A stretch of 64,000 nucleotides of DNA from a bacterium. GTDB taxonomy: Bacteria; Patescibacteriota; Minisyncoccia; UBA6257; HR35. The notes below the pieces were generated by a model. It was not told the DNA's origin, searched no databases, and saw only the letters and a program-made list of their open reading frames with translations. The DNA lies in contig JBEQAR010000004.1 in the NCBI GenBank assembly GCA_041640295.1, positions 3,128-67,127 of the forward strand, in the 5' to 3' direction. Numbering within the stretch: the first letter of the stretch is position 1; the number at the start of each line of letters is the position of its first letter. A program made the position numbers and the translations under genes. Below, one piece after another: positions 28,481 through 39,310 of the stretch.

Positions 28481-28548
28481 TCTTTTAAATTTAAATATTT
28501 TGCTTTATAATCTTTATTGAGGTCGAATTAATATTAAATAAACAAAAA

Positions 28549-28839
28549 ATGGCAAGTCAAAACACAGTAAAAAGAGAAGCTTTGGCTCAAAAAATCGCCG
28601 AAAAATTTGATTTACCCAAAAAAACAGCGGTCGAAATATTAAATTATTTTGTTGAATTGGTTTCTTCCAATCTTAAATCAGGTAACAAAGTTAAATTGCC
28701 AGGTTTAGGAACTTTTAAGGTTAGAGAAAGAAAGGCAAGAACCGCTATTAATCCAAAAACAGGCGAAAAAATTACTGTTCCTGCTACACGCGTTCCTAAA
28801 TTTACTCCAGCAAAAGAATTAAAAGCATTATTTAAATAA
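28549..28839 (+). CDS. hup: DNA-binding protein HU
   Basis: 96 aa. GLGTFKVRERKARTAINPKTGEKI arm motif. Confidence 0.9.
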   Translation: MASQNTVKREALAQKIAEKFDLPKKTAVEILNYFVELVSSNLKSGNKVKLPGLGTFKVRERKARTAINPKTGEKITVPATRVPKFTPAKELKALFK

Positions 28840-28924
28840 ACAATTAAAATTAAACCTCTTATTAGTGGAAAATATAATTCTATATCAAGATTTTTTAATG
28901 TTGTTAAAATTATTTTGAGATAAA

Positions 28925-29023
28925 ATGGTTAAAAAGGAAAGTAAATCTAATATTTTTTTGATAATACTTATCGTTGTGATTATTTTAGGAATGATTTTAA
29001 GTTCATTAGCTTTTATTTTTTAA
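28925..29023 (+). CDS. Possible small hydrophobic peptide (32 aa), not in the ORF track
   Basis: ATG...TAA ORF encoding MVKKESKSNIFLIILIVVIILGMILSSLAFIF with a single TM-like helix. No homology support. Confidence 0.2.
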   Translation: MVKKESKSNIFLIILIVVIILGMILSSLAFIF

Positions 29024-29070
29024 TTATATTAATAAAAAATTATATTAATGTGTGAGAATTATTAAATAAA

Positions 29071-29637
29071 ATGGCAGGAATAAAAAATGACGAATGGATA
29101 AAACATATGGCTAAAAAGCATAAAATGATTGAACCTTTTGTTGAAAAGCTTGTTTCCAAAGGCAAAGTTTCTTATGGTCTTTCAAGTTATGGTTATGATA
29201 TGAGAGTTGCTGATGAGTTTTATATTTTTCATAACGCTTATCCAACTGAAGTTATTGATCCTAAAAATGCTAAAGAAAGTTACTTTATTAGACATAAAGG
29301 TAAGGTTTGTATTATCCCTCCCAATTCTTTTGTTTTAGCTAGATCAGTTGAATATTTTCGAATTCCAAGAAATGTTTTGGGTATTGTTTTTGGAAAATCA
29401 ACTTATGCCCGCTGTGGGATTATTGTTAATGTGACCCCATTAGAGCCAGAATGGACTGGAACGCTGGTTATAGAAATCTCTAACACAACACCTCTGCCAG
29501 CTAAAATTTATGCTAATGAGGGAATCGCTCAAGTGATATTTTTAGAAGCTGATGAACCCTGCAAGGTTTCTTATGCTGATCGCAAAGGAAAATATCAAAA
29601 ACAAAAAGGCATAGTTTTACCAAAAGTAATTAAATAA
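29071..29637 (+). CDS. dcd: dCTP deaminase
   Basis: 188 aa, length and overall pattern consistent with dCTP deaminase. Confidence 0.85.
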
Positions 29638-29649
29638 AAGTCGGCCATT

Positions 29650-29825
29650 AAATCAACCGCGAACTAGTGCAAACGGCGATAATAAACGCGAACCAATGCG
29701 AACAAGTGAGTATAATCACTACCCATGCAAACAAACAAAAGTTCGCAGGAGTTCGCGTGAAACCTTACCTGACGCCCGCCTATCTGGCGGACAGGGCAGG
29801 CAGAGTTTGCAGTAGTTCGCATTAT
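29650..29825. repeat. GC-rich palindromic repeat element: left arm RCGAAC units, right arm GTTCGCR units (intergenic copy)
   Basis: Left arm has ccgcgaac, gcaaac, acgcgaac, gcgaac, gcaaac. Right arm has gttcgca, gttcgcg, gtttgca, gttcgca. Central GC palindrome gcccgcc...ggcggac. GC far above the flanking ~28%. Confidence 0.7.
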
Positions 29826-29835
29826 ATTATCAAAA

Positions 29836-30225
29836 ATGGAATTTATCTTCCTTCTTTCAAGACTTATTCTTGGTCTTTATTTTTTATTTAATGCTTTTAA
29901 TCATTTTACAAAATTAGCTATGCTTGCTGAATATGCTAAAAGTAAAAATGTTCCAATGCCAAAATTGGCTGTTATATTTACGGGTTTTCTTTTATTAATT
30001 GGAGGCATTTCAATTTTGTTAGGAATTTATATAGAAATAGGAGTTTTAGCTTTAACTATATTCTTTTTACCAGTAACTTTTATAATGCATAATTTCTGGC
30101 AAATTCAAGATCCGCAAATGAAAATGATGGAAATGATAAATTTTTCAAAAAATATAGCAATTTGGGCAGGAGTTTTACTTTTACTTTTTGTTCCTCAACC
30201 TTGGATTTATTCGTTGGGCTGGTAA
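29836..30225 (+). CDS. DoxX family membrane protein
   Basis: 129 aa. Four TM helices, DoxX-like LILGLYFLFNAFNHF. Confidence 0.65.
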   Translation: MEFIFLLSRLILGLYFLFNAFNHFTKLAMLAEYAKSKNVPMPKLAVIFTGFLLLIGGISILLGIYIEIGVLALTIFFLPVTFIMHNFWQIQDPQMKMMEMINFSKNIAIWAGVLLLLFVPQPWIYSLGW

Positions 30226-30264
30226 ATTTAATTCGGAATTAGTTCTCAATATTATCAAGAAAAA

Positions 30265-30684
30265 ATGATAATCAAAAAATTAAATAACAACAATTATCTT
30301 TTACGGATTGAACCCAACGAAGAATTATTCGGTTCGCTTTTAAATTTTGCCCAAAAACACAAAATTAAGTCAGGATTTTTCTATGGTATTGGTGCTTGTA
30401 AAACTTGTATAATTGGAAGATATAATGAGAAGAAAAAAGATTATGATTGGAAAAAAATTAAACAGCAAATGGAGATCGGTAGTTTAATTGGTAATTTAAC
30501 TTATAAAGAAGGGCATTACTATTTACATATTCACACTGTTTTTGGAGATAAAAATTTAAAAACTTTGTCAGGACATTTAAAAGAACTTATAGTTTTTCCA
30601 ACTTGTGAGATAATGTTTTTTGCTTTTGATAAGAAAATTGAAAGAAAATATGACAAATTAACAAATCTGTTTTTGATTGGGTAA
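30265..30684 (+). CDS. PPC (DUF296) domain protein
   Basis: LRIEPNEEL...GIGA...YLHIHTVFGD...SGHLKELIVFPTCEI pattern typical of PPC/DUF296. Confidence 0.55.
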   Translation: MIIKKLNNNNYLLRIEPNEELFGSLLNFAQKHKIKSGFFYGIGACKTCIIGRYNEKKKDYDWKKIKQQMEIGSLIGNLTYKEGHYYLHIHTVFGDKNLKTLSGHLKELIVFPTCEIMFFAFDKKIERKYDKLTNLFLIG

Positions 30685-31133
30685 TGTTATCAAAAATAGA
30701 TCAATTTATAATCAGAACCCTACAAAAAATCTGGAGACCATTAGCAAAAATTTCTATCTTTATTATTTTCTTTTATTTTGGGTTTTTGAAAGTTCTGGGC
30801 TTAAGTCCAGCTAATCCTTTAGTCTCAGCCCTACTTCAGCAAACTATTGATTTTGTTCCTTTTGAAAAATTTGTTATTCTTTGGGGATTTTTTGAAATGC
30901 TTATTGGTTTAACATTTATTACTCCCAGATTAGAAAGAATAGCAATTTTTCTTTTATTACTTCATATGATTATAGTTGCTTTACCATTAATATTACTTCC
31001 TCAAATTACTTGGCAGAAATTCTTAGTTCCAACATTAGAAGGTCAATATATAATTAAAAATTTAGCTATAATTTCTTTAGCTTTAGTTATTGGCGCTCAT
31101 TTAAAAAATAACCAAGATAAAATTTTTAAATAA
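30684..31133 (+). CDS. Hypothetical integral membrane protein
   Basis: 149 aa. Four predicted TM helices. Translationally coupled to the upstream ORF. Confidence 0.4.
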   Translation: MLSKIDQFIIRTLQKIWRPLAKISIFIIFFYFGFLKVLGLSPANPLVSALLQQTIDFVPFEKFVILWGFFEMLIGLTFITPRLERIAIFLLLLHMIIVALPLILLPQITWQKFLVPTLEGQYIIKNLAIISLALVIGAHLKNNQDKIFK

Positions 31134-31165
31134 AAATTTATTAAATTTATTAAATTGAAAATTAT

Positions 31166-32110
31166 ATGGAAAAATTTTTACAAGAATTCAAATTACAATT
31201 TCAATTCAAACCAGTAATAGAAAATTTAAATAACTTTAAAGGTAAAAACAAATTCTTAATCGTTGGGATGGGTGGTTCTCATTTAGCAGCTGATTTATTA
31301 AAAATAACCCATCCCTTTTTAGATTTAACTATCATTAGTGATTTTAATTTACCTCAATTGTCAGATTTATTAGAAAGGAAAATTATTTTAATTTCTTATT
31401 CTGGAAATACTTTAGAAACTATTAATGCTTTGCAAAAATTAGAACGAACCAAAATTAAACCTTTGATGATTTCAGCTAATGGCTTACTCTTAGCTCGAGC
31501 GAAAATTAATAAATATCCTTATATTGAATTACCAGAGAAAAATTTACCACCTAGATTAGCGATTGGTTATCTTTACTTAAGTCTATTAAAAGCTATTAAT
31601 GATGAGAATTCTTTAAAAAAGATTAGTGGAGACTTAATAAAATTTAATTTTTCAAAAATTCAAAAAAGAGCTTTAACCTTGTCATTGAAATTGAAAGGAA
31701 AAATTCCTATTATTTATTCATCTTTTATTAATTATCCGTTGGCTTATAATTTTAAAATAAGATTTAACGAAACAGCGAAAATTCCAGCTTTTTGCCATTA
31801 TTTACCCGAAGCGAATCACAATGAAATTCAGGGTTTTTATAGGTTGAAAAAAATTTTTTATTTTTTGCTATTAGAAGATAAAACAGACTCTAAAGAATTA
31901 ATAGCAACATTCAAAACAATTAAGAAATTTTTAAAAGATAAAAAATTTTTTGTTGAAAGTTTAACTCTTGATGAAAAAGATGTATTTAAAAAAATTTTTT
32001 CAGCAATTCATTTAGCGGATTTGTTAAGTTTTTATCTAGCGAAAATTTATAAGTTAGATCCATTATCTACACCATTTATTGATGAAATTAAAAAAAGATT
32101 AAAAATTTAA
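31166..32110 (+). CDS. SIS-domain bifunctional phosphoglucose/phosphomannose isomerase-like protein
   Basis: IVGMGGSHLAADLLK SIS motif. 314 aa. Directly upstream of the glucokinase. Confidence 0.55.
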   Translation: MEKFLQEFKLQFQFKPVIENLNNFKGKNKFLIVGMGGSHLAADLLKITHPFLDLTIISDFNLPQLSDLLERKIILISYSGNTLETINALQKLERTKIKPLMISANGLLLARAKINKYPYIELPEKNLPPRLAIGYLYLSLLKAINDENSLKKISGDLIKFNFSKIQKRALTLSLKLKGKIPIIYSSFINYPLAYNFKIRFNETAKIPAFCHYLPEANHNEIQGFYRLKKIFYFLLLEDKTDSKELIATFKTIKKFLKDKKFFVESLTLDEKDVFKKIFSAIHLADLLSFYLAKIYKLDPLSTPFIDEIKKRLKI

Positions 32111-33273
32111 TGGGATTTTTCTTAGGCGACATTGGCGGAAGTAAAACAAGATTGATTTTTCTTGATTCAGAGAAAGATTTAAAAAAGCAAAATTTGAAAA
32201 TTTTTAAAACCCCTCAGAAGTATAAAGAATTTTTGGAATTATTAAGAAATGAGTATGTGGTACGAATTAATAGAAACCACAATAAACTAATACAAACAGA
32301 TAAAAATACTAACAATAATCGCGACTCTATACAAAAAAATAAAGTTCGCATCAATTTGCGTGAAAGTTCGCAATGGTTTGCGGCAAAGAAAACGAGAAAG
32401 ACTGTTTTTGGGTTTGCAGGTATGCTTGATGAAAAGAGAGAAAAATTAATTTATGCTCCGAATTTAAAAGATTTTGAAAATAAAAATTTAAAAAGAGATT
32501 TAGAAAAAATCTTGGAAACAGAAGTTATTTTAGAAAATGATGCTACTTTAGCTGGTTTAGGAGAAGGGAAATACGGAGTAGGTAAAAATTTTGATGTTTT
32601 TGGATATATAACTTTGTCAACAGGAGTAGGAGGCGCAAAAATTGTTAAGACGCGAACTAATACGAACTATAGCGAACTGATGCGAATAGATACTACAACA
32701 CGAACGGATACGAACAATGATAATAACCACGAACCAATACGAACAAATAATAGTTTATATGAGTTCGCGCCTAATGATAATGTTCGCAATAGTTCGCGAG
32801 AAAGTTCGCAATGGTTCGCGGTTGATATAAATAAATTTGGTTTTGAGCCTGGACACTCTTTTTTGTTATTAACGCAGACAGCCGCGGACTTAACGCAGAC
32901 ACTCTTTAACAATGTTCGCGGCAGTTCGCGTATAGTTCGCGGTAGTTGGCGTAAAAACTTATTTGAGATCGAAGAACTGCTTGGTGGAGAAAATATTGAG
33001 AAAACTTTTGGTAAAAAACCTGAAGAGATAAAAGACAAAAAATTTTGGAACTTTTATCATCAAATTCTTTCAATTTTTTTAATCAATGTTTCAATTTTTT
33101 GGTCTGTTGATAAAATAATTTTAGGCGGCGGAATTACAAAAAGTTTAGATTTTAAAAAATTAAATTCTCTAGTGAACAAACTCCACCCCTTGCCGATAAA
33201 AATACAAATAATAAAATCAAAACTCGGTGAAATGAGTGTTTTATATGGAGGATTAGTAAGGAGCGGTATCTAA
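32110..33273 (+). CDS. glk: ROK-family glucokinase carrying two in-frame GC-rich repeat insertions
   Basis: ROK motifs MGFFLGDIGGSKTRL, ENDATLAGLGE, GYITLSTGVGGA, ILGGGI. Two insert segments of about 45 aa and about 100 aa encode low-complexity peptide, including a duplicated RESSQWFA. Confidence 0.7.
   Translation: MGFFLGDIGGSKTRLIFLDSEKDLKKQNLKIFKTPQKYKEFLELLRNEYVVRINRNHNKLIQTDKNTNNNRDSIQKNKVRINLRESSQWFAAKKTRKTVFGFAGMLDEKREKLIYAPNLKDFENKNLKRDLEKILETEVILENDATLAGLGEGKYGVGKNFDVFGYITLSTGVGGAKIVKTRTNTNYSELMRIDTTTRTDTNNDNNHEPIRTNNSLYEFAPNDNVRNSSRESSQWFAVDINKFGFEPGHSFLLLTQTAADLTQTLFNNVRGSSRIVRGSWRKNLFEIEELLGGENIEKTFGKKPEEIKDKKFWNFYHQILSIFLINVSIFWSVDKIILGGGITKSLDFKKLNSLVNKLHPLPIKIQIIKSKLGEMSVLYGGLVRSGI
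32265..32400. repeat. GC-rich GTTCGCR-type repeat element, in-frame insertion 1 in glk
   Basis: Right part has gttcgca, tttgcgt, gttcgca, gtttgcg. Left part has degenerate caaac/aacaa units. Confidence 0.6.
32650..32960. repeat. GC-rich inverted tandem-repeat element, in-frame insertion 2 in glk
   Basis: Left arm is 8 copies of RCGAAC spaced by a ~10-bp period (with two ~18-19-bp lapses). Right arm is 5 copies of GTTCGCR at 10-12 bp spacing (one ~19-bp lapse), then ttaacgcagaca x2, then 3 more GTTCGCG at 10-11 bp. Arms are reverse complements. Confidence 0.75.
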
Positions 33274-33318
33274 TTTACGCTATTTTTAAATTTTCACAAT
33301 TTATTTTATAATTAATCT

Positions 33319-33540
33319 ATGTCAAGAATAATTTTTGACCCAAAGATTTTAAGAGGGAAGCCGATTATTAAAGGAACAAGAATTTCTGTTGATTTAATTT
33401 TGGAACTTTTGGCTAATAATTGGTCAATTGAAGATATTTTAAAACAATATCCCCAACTAAAAAAACAAGACATTCTCGATGCTTTAAAATATTCTGCTAA
33501 GAGAATTAAGAGAGAAGAAACTATTTTAATTTCTAAATGA
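33319..33540 (+). CDS. DUF433 family putative antitoxin
   Basis: 73 aa. FDPKILRGKPIIKGTRISVDLILELL matches the DUF433 signature. 4-nt overlap with downstream ORF. Confidence 0.65.
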   Translation: MSRIIFDPKILRGKPIIKGTRISVDLILELLANNWSIEDILKQYPQLKKQDILDALKYSAKRIKREETILISK

Positions 33541-33857
33541 AATTTCTTTTGGATGAAAATATTCCTTTTGAACTTCAAAATTATTTAGCAAAATATAAAA
33601 TTTCAAGCTCTCATCTTTTAGGTTTGAAACTGAAAGGACTAAGCGATGAGGAAGTTTTCGATTATGCACAGAAAAGAAAATTTATAATAATTACTTTCGA
33701 TAAGGATTTCTTAAATGAGAAATTTTATACCCAATCCCATTACGGAGTAATTTATATTTCACCTAAAATCAAAGATTTAGATAAATTAGCAGAAGCAATT
33801 TTTAAAACGATTAAAAGTTATAAAAGTTTTAAAAACAAAGTTGTTATTATTCAATAA
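33537..33857 (+). CDS. DUF5615 (PIN-like, Mut7-C-type) putative toxin
   Basis: MKFLLDENIP start and acidic PIN-like residues. Canonical partner of DUF433. Confidence 0.6.
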   Translation: MKFLLDENIPFELQNYLAKYKISSSHLLGLKLKGLSDEEVFDYAQKRKFIIITFDKDFLNEKFYTQSHYGVIYISPKIKDLDKLAEAIFKTIKSYKSFKNKVVIIQ

Positions 33858-38584: not shown

Positions 38585-39310
38585 ATGAAACTTTATATCG
38601 TAGCAACGCCGATTGGGAATTTAAAAGATATAACCTTAAGAGCTTTGGAGGTTTTAAAATCTGTTAATTATATTGTTTGCGAAGATACAAGAAGAACAAA
38701 AAAATTATTAGATCATTATGGAATTAAAAATAAAAAATTAATTTCTTATTTTGCACCCCGAGAAGAAGAGAAGATTCCTTTGATTTTAAAAATTTTAGAA
38801 AAAGAAAATGTTGCCTTAGTTGTTGATGCGGGAATGCCGGGAATTTCTGATCCTGGTTATAAATTAATTAAGGCTTGTTTAGAGAAAACGCGGATTTACG
38901 CGGATATGACGAAAGATAATCAGCGTCTATCAGCGTCGAATCAGCGTGAATCAGCGTTAATAGAAATAGAGGTTTTACCGGGACCATCAGCATTTTTAAC
39001 TGCTCTTATTGGTTCAGGACTGCCAACTGATAAATTTTTATTTTTAGGATTTCTACCGAAAAAGGGATTAGAAAATTATTTAAGTAAATTTGAAAATTTA
39101 GAAGCAACAATAATTTTCTATGAATCGCCCCAAAGAATTCCAAAAACTTTAGATGTTATTGAAAAAGTTTTTGGAAATGTTGATATTGTTATTGCCCGCG
39201 AAATCTCGAAAATTTATGAGGAATATATAAGAGGAAAATTAAGCGAAATCAAAGAAAAATTAAAAAACAAAAAATTAAAAGGAGAACTAACTGTTATTTT
39301 TAGAAAATAG
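38585..39310 (+). CDS. rsmI: 16S rRNA (cytidine1402-2'-O)-methyltransferase with in-frame repeat insertion
   Basis: MKLYIVATPIGNLKDITLRALEVL...VCEDTRRT and PGISDPGYKLI motifs. About 24 extra aa (RIYADMTKDNQRLSASNQRESALIEI) sit between the KACLEKT and EVLPGPSAF blocks that are contiguous in E. coli RsmI. Confidence 0.85.
   Translation: MKLYIVATPIGNLKDITLRALEVLKSVNYIVCEDTRRTKKLLDHYGIKNKKLISYFAPREEEKIPLILKILEKENVALVVDAGMPGISDPGYKLIKACLEKTRIYADMTKDNQRLSASNQRESALIEIEVLPGPSAFLTALIGSGLPTDKFLFLGFLPKKGLENYLSKFENLEATIIFYESPQRIPKTLDVIEKVFGNVDIVIAREISKIYEEYIRGKLSEIKEKLKNKKLKGELTVIFRK
38885..38962. repeat. GC-rich inverted tandem-repeat element (ATCAGCGT type), in-frame in rsmI
   Basis: Left arm ACGCGGAT x2. 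Right arm ATCAGCGT x4 at 10-11 bp period. Arms are near reverse complements (ATCCGCGT vs ATCAGCGT). Confidence 0.7.

Follow-up and report, generated by a model that had tools for sequence, protein, structure and literature searches.

Between the dcd and doxX genes of this Patescibacterium lies a palindromic insert (29655-29826) that is probably a non-autonomous, gene-less derivative, resembling MITEs and Rickettsia palindromic elements (RPEs), of a nuclease-associated selfish repeat element. The neighbouring genes assign the locus to Patescibacteria. In the family that we propose, short GC-rich units would lie one helical turn apart in arrays whose orientation is first reverse and then forward. 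A full-length member would carry the gene for a predicted GxxExxY nuclease of the PD-(D/E)XK type between the two arrays, and in gene-less members the arrays would abut or enclose a short loop. Coordinates refer to the window, the whole stretch of 64,000 nucleotides that was analysed, and the underlying data are metagenome assemblies throughout.

An insertion between dcd and doxX

Locus comparison identifies 29655-29826 as an insertion relative to the nearest relatives, as judged from aligned sequence. The two closest relatives, L246 and L245/L244, were found via the ROK protein (60% and 56% ROK identity, respectively). The spacer between dcd and doxX measures 198 nt in the window versus 25 nt in L246 and 28 nt in L245/L244, and its flanks are conserved (AAGTCGgccATTAAATC ... 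TTATCAAAAATG in the window versus AGGTCGaaATTAATC-TTTTTTAAAAATG in L246), so that about 172 nt are extra in the window. The insert sequence is identical in three independent assemblies (L001, L002, and L003), where the one SNP lies outside the element, and it is therefore not an assembly artefact. Comparing copies for a consensus and for termini, as the preliminary description had envisaged, yielded the former (the di-unit consensus described below) and not the latter, since sharp conserved termini were found neither against L246 nor in the comparison of L209 with L211. Target-site duplications, likewise envisaged there, did not emerge from these two filled/empty comparisons: none is clear relative to the empty site in L246, and none was seen at the L209/L211 sites. 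In the KatS3mg097-type relative (L245/L244, 4450-5458), dcd is called as a 95-aa fragment and doxX encodes 230 aa through a Cys-rich C-terminal extension that is missing in the window doxX.

The insert and its flanks comprise the following features:

29071..29637, plus strand: dcd (dCTP deaminase), the upstream flank; Pfam DCD, E = 2e-35
29655..29826, no strand: entire insert of ~172 nt, delimited by the spacer length in relatives and bounded by the conserved remnants ATTAAATC (29647-29654) and TTATCAAAA (29827-29835)
29657..29675, minus strand: outer left arm, reverse di-unit CCGCGAAC-TAG-TGCAAAC; pairs with 29805-29821 in the predicted fold
29686..29704, minus strand: inner left arm, reverse di-unit ACGCGAAC-CAA-TGCGAAC; pairs with 29741-29758; repeat families D5, D7, and D8
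29705..29740, no strand: inner loop with one degenerate reverse unit, GCAAAC (29727-29732); alignable to the loop of ROK insertion 2
29741..29758, plus strand: inner right arm, forward di-unit GTTCGCA-GGA-GTTCGCG; reference copy of repeat family D1; fits the cross-species di-unit consensus
29768..29800, no strand: GC-rich hairpin module CCTGaCGCCCGCC-tatct-GGCGGaCAGG+GCAGG, nested among forward units; a separate hairpin in the fold
29805..29821, plus strand: outer right arm, forward di-unit GTTTGCA-GTA-GTTCGCA; pairs with the outer left arm
29836..30225, plus strand: doxX, the downstream flank; Pfam DoxX, E = 2.6e-11

Five reverse units (GCGAAC at 29659, 29688, and 29698; GCAAAC at 29669 and 29727) precede four forward units (GTTCGC at 29741, 29751, and 29815; GTTTGC at 29805) with a spacing of 10 nt and the polarity -----++++, confirming the five RCGAAC-type and four GTTCGCR-type units reported in the preliminary description. 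The GC-rich palindrome reported with them exists as well (29768-29800, core gcccgcctatctggcggac), but it is not central. The forward units at 29741 and 29751 precede it, and the hairpin sits between forward units instead of separating five units from four. GTTCGC occurs 27 times in the 64-kb window, which has a base composition of about 28% GC, versus an expectation of 4.9 +/- 2.6, and none of 100 shuffles reached 27 occurrences; all clustered copies lie at 29659-29820 or within the ROK gene (32110-33273).

Complementarity extends to 15 of the 17 positions of the outer arms (29658-29674 and 29805-29821), and the inner arms (29686-29703 and 29741-29758) also pair. In the predicted nested fold, an outer stem (29659-29675 with 29805-29821) surrounds the inner hairpin (29686-29703 with 29741-29758) and the GC hairpin. 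The GTTTGC variant on the right of the outer stem pairs with the GCAAAC variant on the left, so that the variant units are still complementary. Predicted fold energies of -67.8 kcal/mol as RNA (z = -6.6) and -38.7 kcal/mol as DNA (z = -5.6) mark the segment as strongly palindromic, in agreement with its earlier description as a palindromic element. The independent Logan contig L003 begins at window position 29715, with its terminus exactly in the palindrome loop, which suggests that such elements break short-read assemblies, a point of practical relevance.

A predicted fold of this stability could reflect a functional RNA hairpin kept for the regulation of doxX, be it a terminator (one of the roles raised in the preliminary description), an attenuator, or an mRNA-stabilising or processing structure. 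Such a role would be in keeping with the co-orientation of dcd and doxX, with the fixation of the insert in three assemblies, and with the complementarity that the GCAAAC and GTTTGC variants retain in the outer stem. However, no T-run lies behind any plus-strand stem (the stems are followed by AGAGTTTGCAG and ATTATATTATC), and a terminator scan of 29000-30400 returned no Rho-independent site on the plus strand. Moreover, in the closest relatives dcd and doxX are separated by only 25-28 nt without a hairpin, and the same element occurs in frame within ROK and, elsewhere, within many housekeeping genes, a setting in which termination would do harm. A search of 28500-33500 with Rfam 15 gave chance-level matches alone (E >= 0.79), none of them overlapping the insert, and promoter-like sites in a promoter scan were at chance level. 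We consider a regulatory hairpin quite unlikely, and the terminator suggestion is not supported. Most likely the insert has no host function and is a neutral gene-less relic or derivative, whose main effect would most likely be the long hairpin that it adds to the dcd-doxX transcript.

Both strands of the insert contain an open frame, 29667-29891 on the plus strand (74 aa, GTG start) and 29664-29822 on the minus strand, as a short protein-coding gene or pseudogene would. The frames are open because the units are stop-poor, however, and neither has a significant Pfam match (the best, to DUF3138, has E = 0.016, below the curated cut-off). In addition, the plus-strand frame runs into the doxX start and the whole segment is absent from relatives. 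That the segment is or was a gene is extremely improbable, and ORF 29667..29891 is probably spurious, as had been supposed at the outset.

No second copy of the GC hairpin (29768-29800) was found in the window, and exact-pattern matches in other loci represent the same locus or chance. GC-rich hairpin modules of this kind (GCCCGCC...GGCGG, CCTGCC...GGCAGG) occur among unit arrays in the insert and in two different ROK genes of Parcubacteria, one of them that of L330, where they lie among the units at about 1640-1680 and 1990-2140. They may represent a small palindromic element in their own right or an optional part of the same family.

Related copies in the window and in other Patescibacteria

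Alignment supports homology of the intergenic insert to in-frame insertions in the ROK gene 3 kb away, which encodes a sugar kinase. The match to ROK insertion 2 extends over ~100 nt including the loop, with a score of 55 versus 17.4 +/- 2.5 for shuffled sequence (~15 sd), and the two loci have repeat families of 21-46 nt in common. Complementarity of the outer left arm (29657..29675) to the ROK copy at 32804-32830 reaches 85%, and the match takes in the common tail GGTTGAT. The preliminary description had placed the intergenic and coding copies in one family, a grouping that would have failed if nothing beyond a hexamer were common to them; the alignment upholds it. Four GTTCGC-unit copies are present in the 64-kb window, and an insertion of the same architecture as the dcd-doxX insert with a different unit type lies in an RsmI-like methyltransferase gene. 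The coding copies are as follows:

32275..32385, plus strand: ROK insertion 1; degenerate reverse units, then four forward units; peptide VRINLRESSQWFAA; missing in most homologues; low pLDDT
32650..32823, plus strand: ROK insertion 2; seven reverse units (GCGAAC/ACGAAC), loop, five forward GTTCGC; in frame
32872..32961, plus strand: ROK insertion 3; unlike arms, 2 x ACGCAGAC, then GTTCGCG x3 and one GTTGGCG; in frame
38885..38962, plus strand: insertion in the RsmI-like methyltransferase gene (38585-39310); 78 nt, in frame; 2 x ACGCGGAT, then 4 x ATCAGCGT, at 10-11-nt spacing; peptide RIYADMTKDNQRLSASNQRESAL

The ROK protein, found in identical form on 11 contigs including the NCBI MAG GCA_964468575.1, has 387 aa versus about 259-290 aa in most homologues listed, and its three separate insertions fall at loops that are also variable in other homologues. 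An AlphaFold model with pLDDT values of 80-94 in the core and 40-60 in the three inserted segments fits the idea that the inserts are tolerated surface loops. The Pfam ROK match is narrowed to residues 97-180, an example of how such inserts disturb annotation, domain detection, and alignments. The arrangement of insertion 3, GCAGAC units and then GTTCGC units, recurs in the glutamate dehydrogenase gene of L183, and the unit type of the RsmI-like insertion also flanks free-standing GxxExxY genes in L249 and L247. At the same loop as insertion 2, L246 (6001-6924) and L245 (6001-6960) carry an inverted array of a different unit, CCGAAT ... ATTCGG, which could mean that a permissive loop was invaded independently or that both arms changed in concert. 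Directly downstream of the ROK gene, in all assemblies of the locus, is a DUF433 / DUF5615 (PIN-like) gene pair (33319-33857) that looks like a toxin-antitoxin module from its gene organisation.

The units are organised as an ordered di-unit, GTTCGC-A-NNN-GTTCGC-G with a 10-nt step, and not as a loose 'GTTCGCR'. In 47 di-units from 10 sources, A follows the first GTTCGC in 40 and G follows the second in 40. Arrays of GTTCGCA-NNN-GTTCGCG occur in at least six other Patescibacteria assemblies, or seven with one labelled Ignavibacteria; among the matches listed, GTTCGC arrays were found in L162, L173, L183, L190, L204, L208, L209, L211, and L233. A three-unit pattern scan of the genome collection yielded mostly high-GC chance matches, with at least about 10 informative loci in AT-rich Patescibacteria, and the same scan of viral contigs gave simple tandem repeats and chance matches alone. 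Six of 10 arrays lie within long reading frames, encoding transketolase, class II ribonucleotide reductase (RNR), glutamate dehydrogenase (GDH), TruB-acylphosphatase (twice), and enolase. The arrays elsewhere are built of 44-48-nt modules, in tandem and/or inverted, and the module spacers ATCAACC and GATAATAA are common to different genes and different species. Between the TruB orthologues of L209 and L211, which have high nucleotide identity, the differences are one 51-nt module and one GCAGAC/GTCTGC palindrome of 13+3 units, neither of them bounded by direct repeats; arrays therefore appear, disappear, and change in size over short times. Some arrays run in one direction only (L173 and L233) or have non-complementary arms (GCAGAC, then GTTCGC), which does not fit a simple inverted-repeat element.

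Conserved cores of 6-7 nt at 10-nt spacing with variable spacers, in the inverted arrangement typical of cooperative binding sites, could also be read as an operator, iteron, or centromere-like array to which a protein of the host binds along one helix face, serving the regulation of neighbouring genes or chromosome organisation. This reading is very unlikely in view of copies that lie in the coding sequence of unrelated genes, different ones in each species, and whose presence varies among close orthologues. No protein other than the GxxExxY nuclease shows a consistent link to such arrays, and the locus has no GC-skew turn or origin-like context. A replication origin with iterons was rejected on the lack of a skew change, a CRISPR array because the units are too short and spacers are absent, and a DNA uptake sequence because the copies are clustered and not dispersed.

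Unit arrays and the GxxExxY nuclease gene

Returning to the selfish-element reading, the unit arrays of the insert are also found around a gene in other genomes. A transketolase reading frame in L190 contains, in order, six reverse units, a complete PDDEXK_3/GxxExxY domain (PF13366, E = 3e-32; TIGR04256, E = 5.6e-34), and four forward GTTCGCG units, and free-standing GxxExxY genes in L249 and L247/L248 are flanked by GCTGAT...ATCAGC units. We took 80 GxxExxY loci from metagenomes, 72 of them scorable, and scored an array as a hexamer occurring at least twice just downstream of the gene with its reverse complement at least twice just upstream. Inverted arrays surrounded the gene in 43 of the 72 loci, whereas none of the 211 positions used as controls within these loci had them; with three occurrences required, the count was 15 of 72. 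The cores vary a single theme (ATTCGT, ATCCGT, TCCGCG, TTCGCG, ATCTGC, and ATCAGC), mostly spaced 8-11 nt apart and nearly constant in polarity relative to the gene. The dcd-doxX insert, with its -----++++ polarity and 10-nt spacing, fits this arrangement of reverse and then forward cores (5-7 nt, 8-11-nt spacing, polarity RCGAAY...RTTCGY). Unit type covaries with protein clade (permutation p ~2e-4), a small effect (mean distance 0.578 versus 0.609) that could come from co-inheritance alone.

The RecG gene of L256 carries a gene-less copy 290 nt from a full-length copy, with identical GCAGAT/ATCTGC units and the two arrays abutting, and L190 and L204 provide a full-length/gene-less pairing inside one MAG. 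This is the relationship expected of an autonomous element and its miniature derivative. The 64-kb window itself yielded no GxxExxY homologue by tblastn or by a profile search of its six-frame translation (best E = 0.14), nor did the inner loop (29705..29740) yield a coding remnant of the gene in these searches. With inverted unit arrays but no GxxExxY ORF, the insert is classed as a derivative and not as a full element. The proposal that the intergenic copy may be closest to the ancestral or mobile form is not supported, given its nested composite structure, its degenerate units (GCAAAC and GTTTGC), and the most complete forms, which carry the GxxExxY gene between the arms and occur in other genomes. 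The arrays could also be preferred landing sites for the nuclease gene, outside the mobile unit proper.

The association with the gene (43 of 72 loci versus none of 211 controls) bears on whether a mobile element is involved at all. In an AT-rich genome, the palindrome could instead have arisen locally, through slippage and through duplication templated by hairpins, with no link to a nuclease and with similar units elsewhere being convergent. The variable number of tandem modules among orthologues would then be expected, as would unequal arms (13 versus 3 units in L209), the use of different units at one ROK loop (GCGAAC/GTTCGC in the window versus CCGAAT/ATTCGG in L246/L245), and the failure to find target-site duplications. 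Besides the strong GxxExxY association, what argues against local origin is the recurrence of the same ordered 17-nt di-unit and of common module spacers in different genes and species, together with the ~100-nt alignment of the intergenic and ROK copies, which takes in the loop. On this evidence a purely local origin is unlikely, and we favour descent from a nuclease-associated element.

The GxxExxY gene product, a putative nuclease (~125 aa, PF13366/TIGR04256), belongs to a family listed as 'function unknown' for PF13366 (PMC3424549). Its structure model (pLDDT 93) has a generic PD-(D/E)XK fold, and D69, E79, and K81 are invariant. Foldseek matches with TM scores of 0.4-0.5 include Cas4, lambda-exonuclease-like enzymes, Hjc, splicing endonucleases, and a homing endonuclease; a PDB sequence profile search gave a marginal match to T7 endonuclease I (E = 0.054), and PHROG and PADLOC matches are weak. 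Matches that are generic, marginal, or weak allow no claim of a nuclease subtype such as a junction resolvase.

At eight of 84 loci the GxxExxY gene is in frame within a longer ORF: between G2 and G3 of LepA (four contigs), between motifs II and III of RecG (three), and in transketolase (one). Complete in-frame domains were noted in L250-L254 (LepA), L253/L256/L259 (RecG), and L190 (transketolase), and in proteins P0221-P0281. The insertion site in LepA and in RecG is the same across divergent lineages, and intein or intron features are absent. A profile search of 1.84 billion representatives (clusters at 50% identity) returned 24,579 family members. Among the best 150 of these, 54 have at least 300 aa, often with an internal domain. 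Ten of the 54 were checked: four are RecG (one cut short), one each is LepA, LeuRS, GatB, asparagine synthase, O-antigen ligase, and glycosyltransferase; one has no other domain. Many top family members of about 260-280 aa are tandem double-domain proteins with two PDDEXK_3 domains per ORF.

The reading frame is kept through both junctions in every coding copy examined, which argues for translation through the insert and against its removal at the RNA level. Judged from the frames, the insert, including the nuclease domain and unit-encoded linkers, is apparently translated within the host protein. With somewhat less than even confidence, we propose that GxxExxY nucleases with flanking inverted, helical-turn-spaced arrays constitute an unrecognised and widespread class of mobile element. 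Such elements would invade conserved genes (LepA, RecG, LeuRS, GatB, asparagine synthase, and transketolase) without intron or intein, remain in frame and be translated through, with the arrays encoding hydrophilic linkers, and leave gene-less palindromic copies across Patescibacteria genomes. The literature searched, the coverage of which is incomplete, described neither these repeats nor GxxExxY genes with flanking repeats, and an earlier description may exist. If true, the proposal would give the large family PF13366/TIGR04256 a biological role, that of a selfish-element enzyme, and would account for many otherwise unexplained differences in length, and for low-complexity inserts, among the housekeeping proteins of Patescibacteria. 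It would also add a third lifestyle for nuclease-type selfish elements in essential genes, translated-through in-frame insertion, to those of introns and inteins.

Proposed mode of spread and known systems

In the mechanism that we envisage, the unit arrays would be the recognition or binding sites of the nuclease, which would drive spread by break-and-repair copying, as in homing, rather than by cut-and-paste transposition. Copying of this kind would explain both the missing target-site duplications and the recurrence of the element at identical LepA and RecG sites. Arrays would grow and shrink through tandem duplication of modules.

By analogy, the closest functional counterparts of the insert are the Rickettsia RPEs and bacterial MITEs, while its mosaic structure recalls REP/BIME sequences and the distribution of full-length members recalls homing endonuclease genes. 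RPEs, as Ogata and colleagues reportedly described them in 2000, are short palindromic selfish DNAs found in spacers and in frame in housekeeping genes. The insert family resembles them in its size (~100-170 nt), its palindromic nature, its reduced AT-rich host genome, its occupation of spacers and in-frame sites, and its loops tolerated by proteins; in the window, three in-frame ROK copies and one intergenic copy display this trait. It differs from them in that its arms are arrays of 6-7-nt units at 10-nt spacing, whereas an RPE is a single long inverted repeat, and in having a variable number of modules and several unit types on one architecture. To our knowledge, RPEs have no encoded enzyme, whereas the insert family has full-length relatives with a nuclease gene. 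Given a Patescibacterium as host, we would not expect sequence homology to RPEs.

Among MITEs, QMITE1 and QMITE2 of Coxiella are small, non-coding, multi-copy elements with inverted-repeat arms and direct repeats of 2-11 nt at their ends; they overlap annotated ORFs, lie in 3' regions, and have been interpreted as derivatives of larger elements that lost the enzyme gene (PMC5896051). The insert is similar in its small size (~172 nt), its inverted-repeat arms, its multiple copies in the window, its ORFs without significant Pfam match, and its probable derivation from a larger element with an enzyme gene. It has no visible terminal direct repeats or target-site duplication, however, and its putative parent is a gene for a ~125-aa PD-(D/E)XK nuclease, not an insertion sequence with a transposase. 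Candidate autonomous relatives, all in other genomes, are the GTTCGC units around the GxxExxY gene of L190 and the full-length/gene-less pair of L256.

REP/BIME sequences are extragenic, individually palindromic hairpins of 20-40 nt with a GTAG or CGTC tag, and the associated RAYT is an HUH tyrosine transposase (PMC3733652). Likeness lies in the short GC-rich units, in the mosaics of alternating orientation, and in a single small gene flanked by repeats that are thought to be its target. The units described here are nonetheless only 6-7 nt long (GTTCGCA/GTTCGCG), singly non-palindromic, periodic at ~10 nt, and often coding, and the associated protein has a PD-(D/E)XK fold and not that of an HUH tyrosine transposase.

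With homing endonuclease genes, as found in inteins and introns, the full-length elements have in common a small nuclease gene at the same position in conserved motifs of essential genes across divergent lineages, and the absence of target-site duplications. They differ in having no intein or intron machinery and in staying in frame and apparently being translated. Two further systems offer an architectural resemblance alone, as they belong to other domains of life and involve other enzymes. In yeast mitochondria, where the genome is very AT-rich, GC clusters form palindromic GC-rich mini-elements that at times lie inside coding genes; transposons of the Ac/Ds type carry multiple short motifs for transposase binding, oppositely oriented in the two subterminal regions. 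Finally, one class II ribonucleotide reductase ORF (L204, 838-4980, minus strand) contains two inserts. One is a gene-less GTTCGC palindromic array, and the other is a ~330-aa segment that, judged from its translation, resembles an intein with a LAGLIDADG-type endonuclease.
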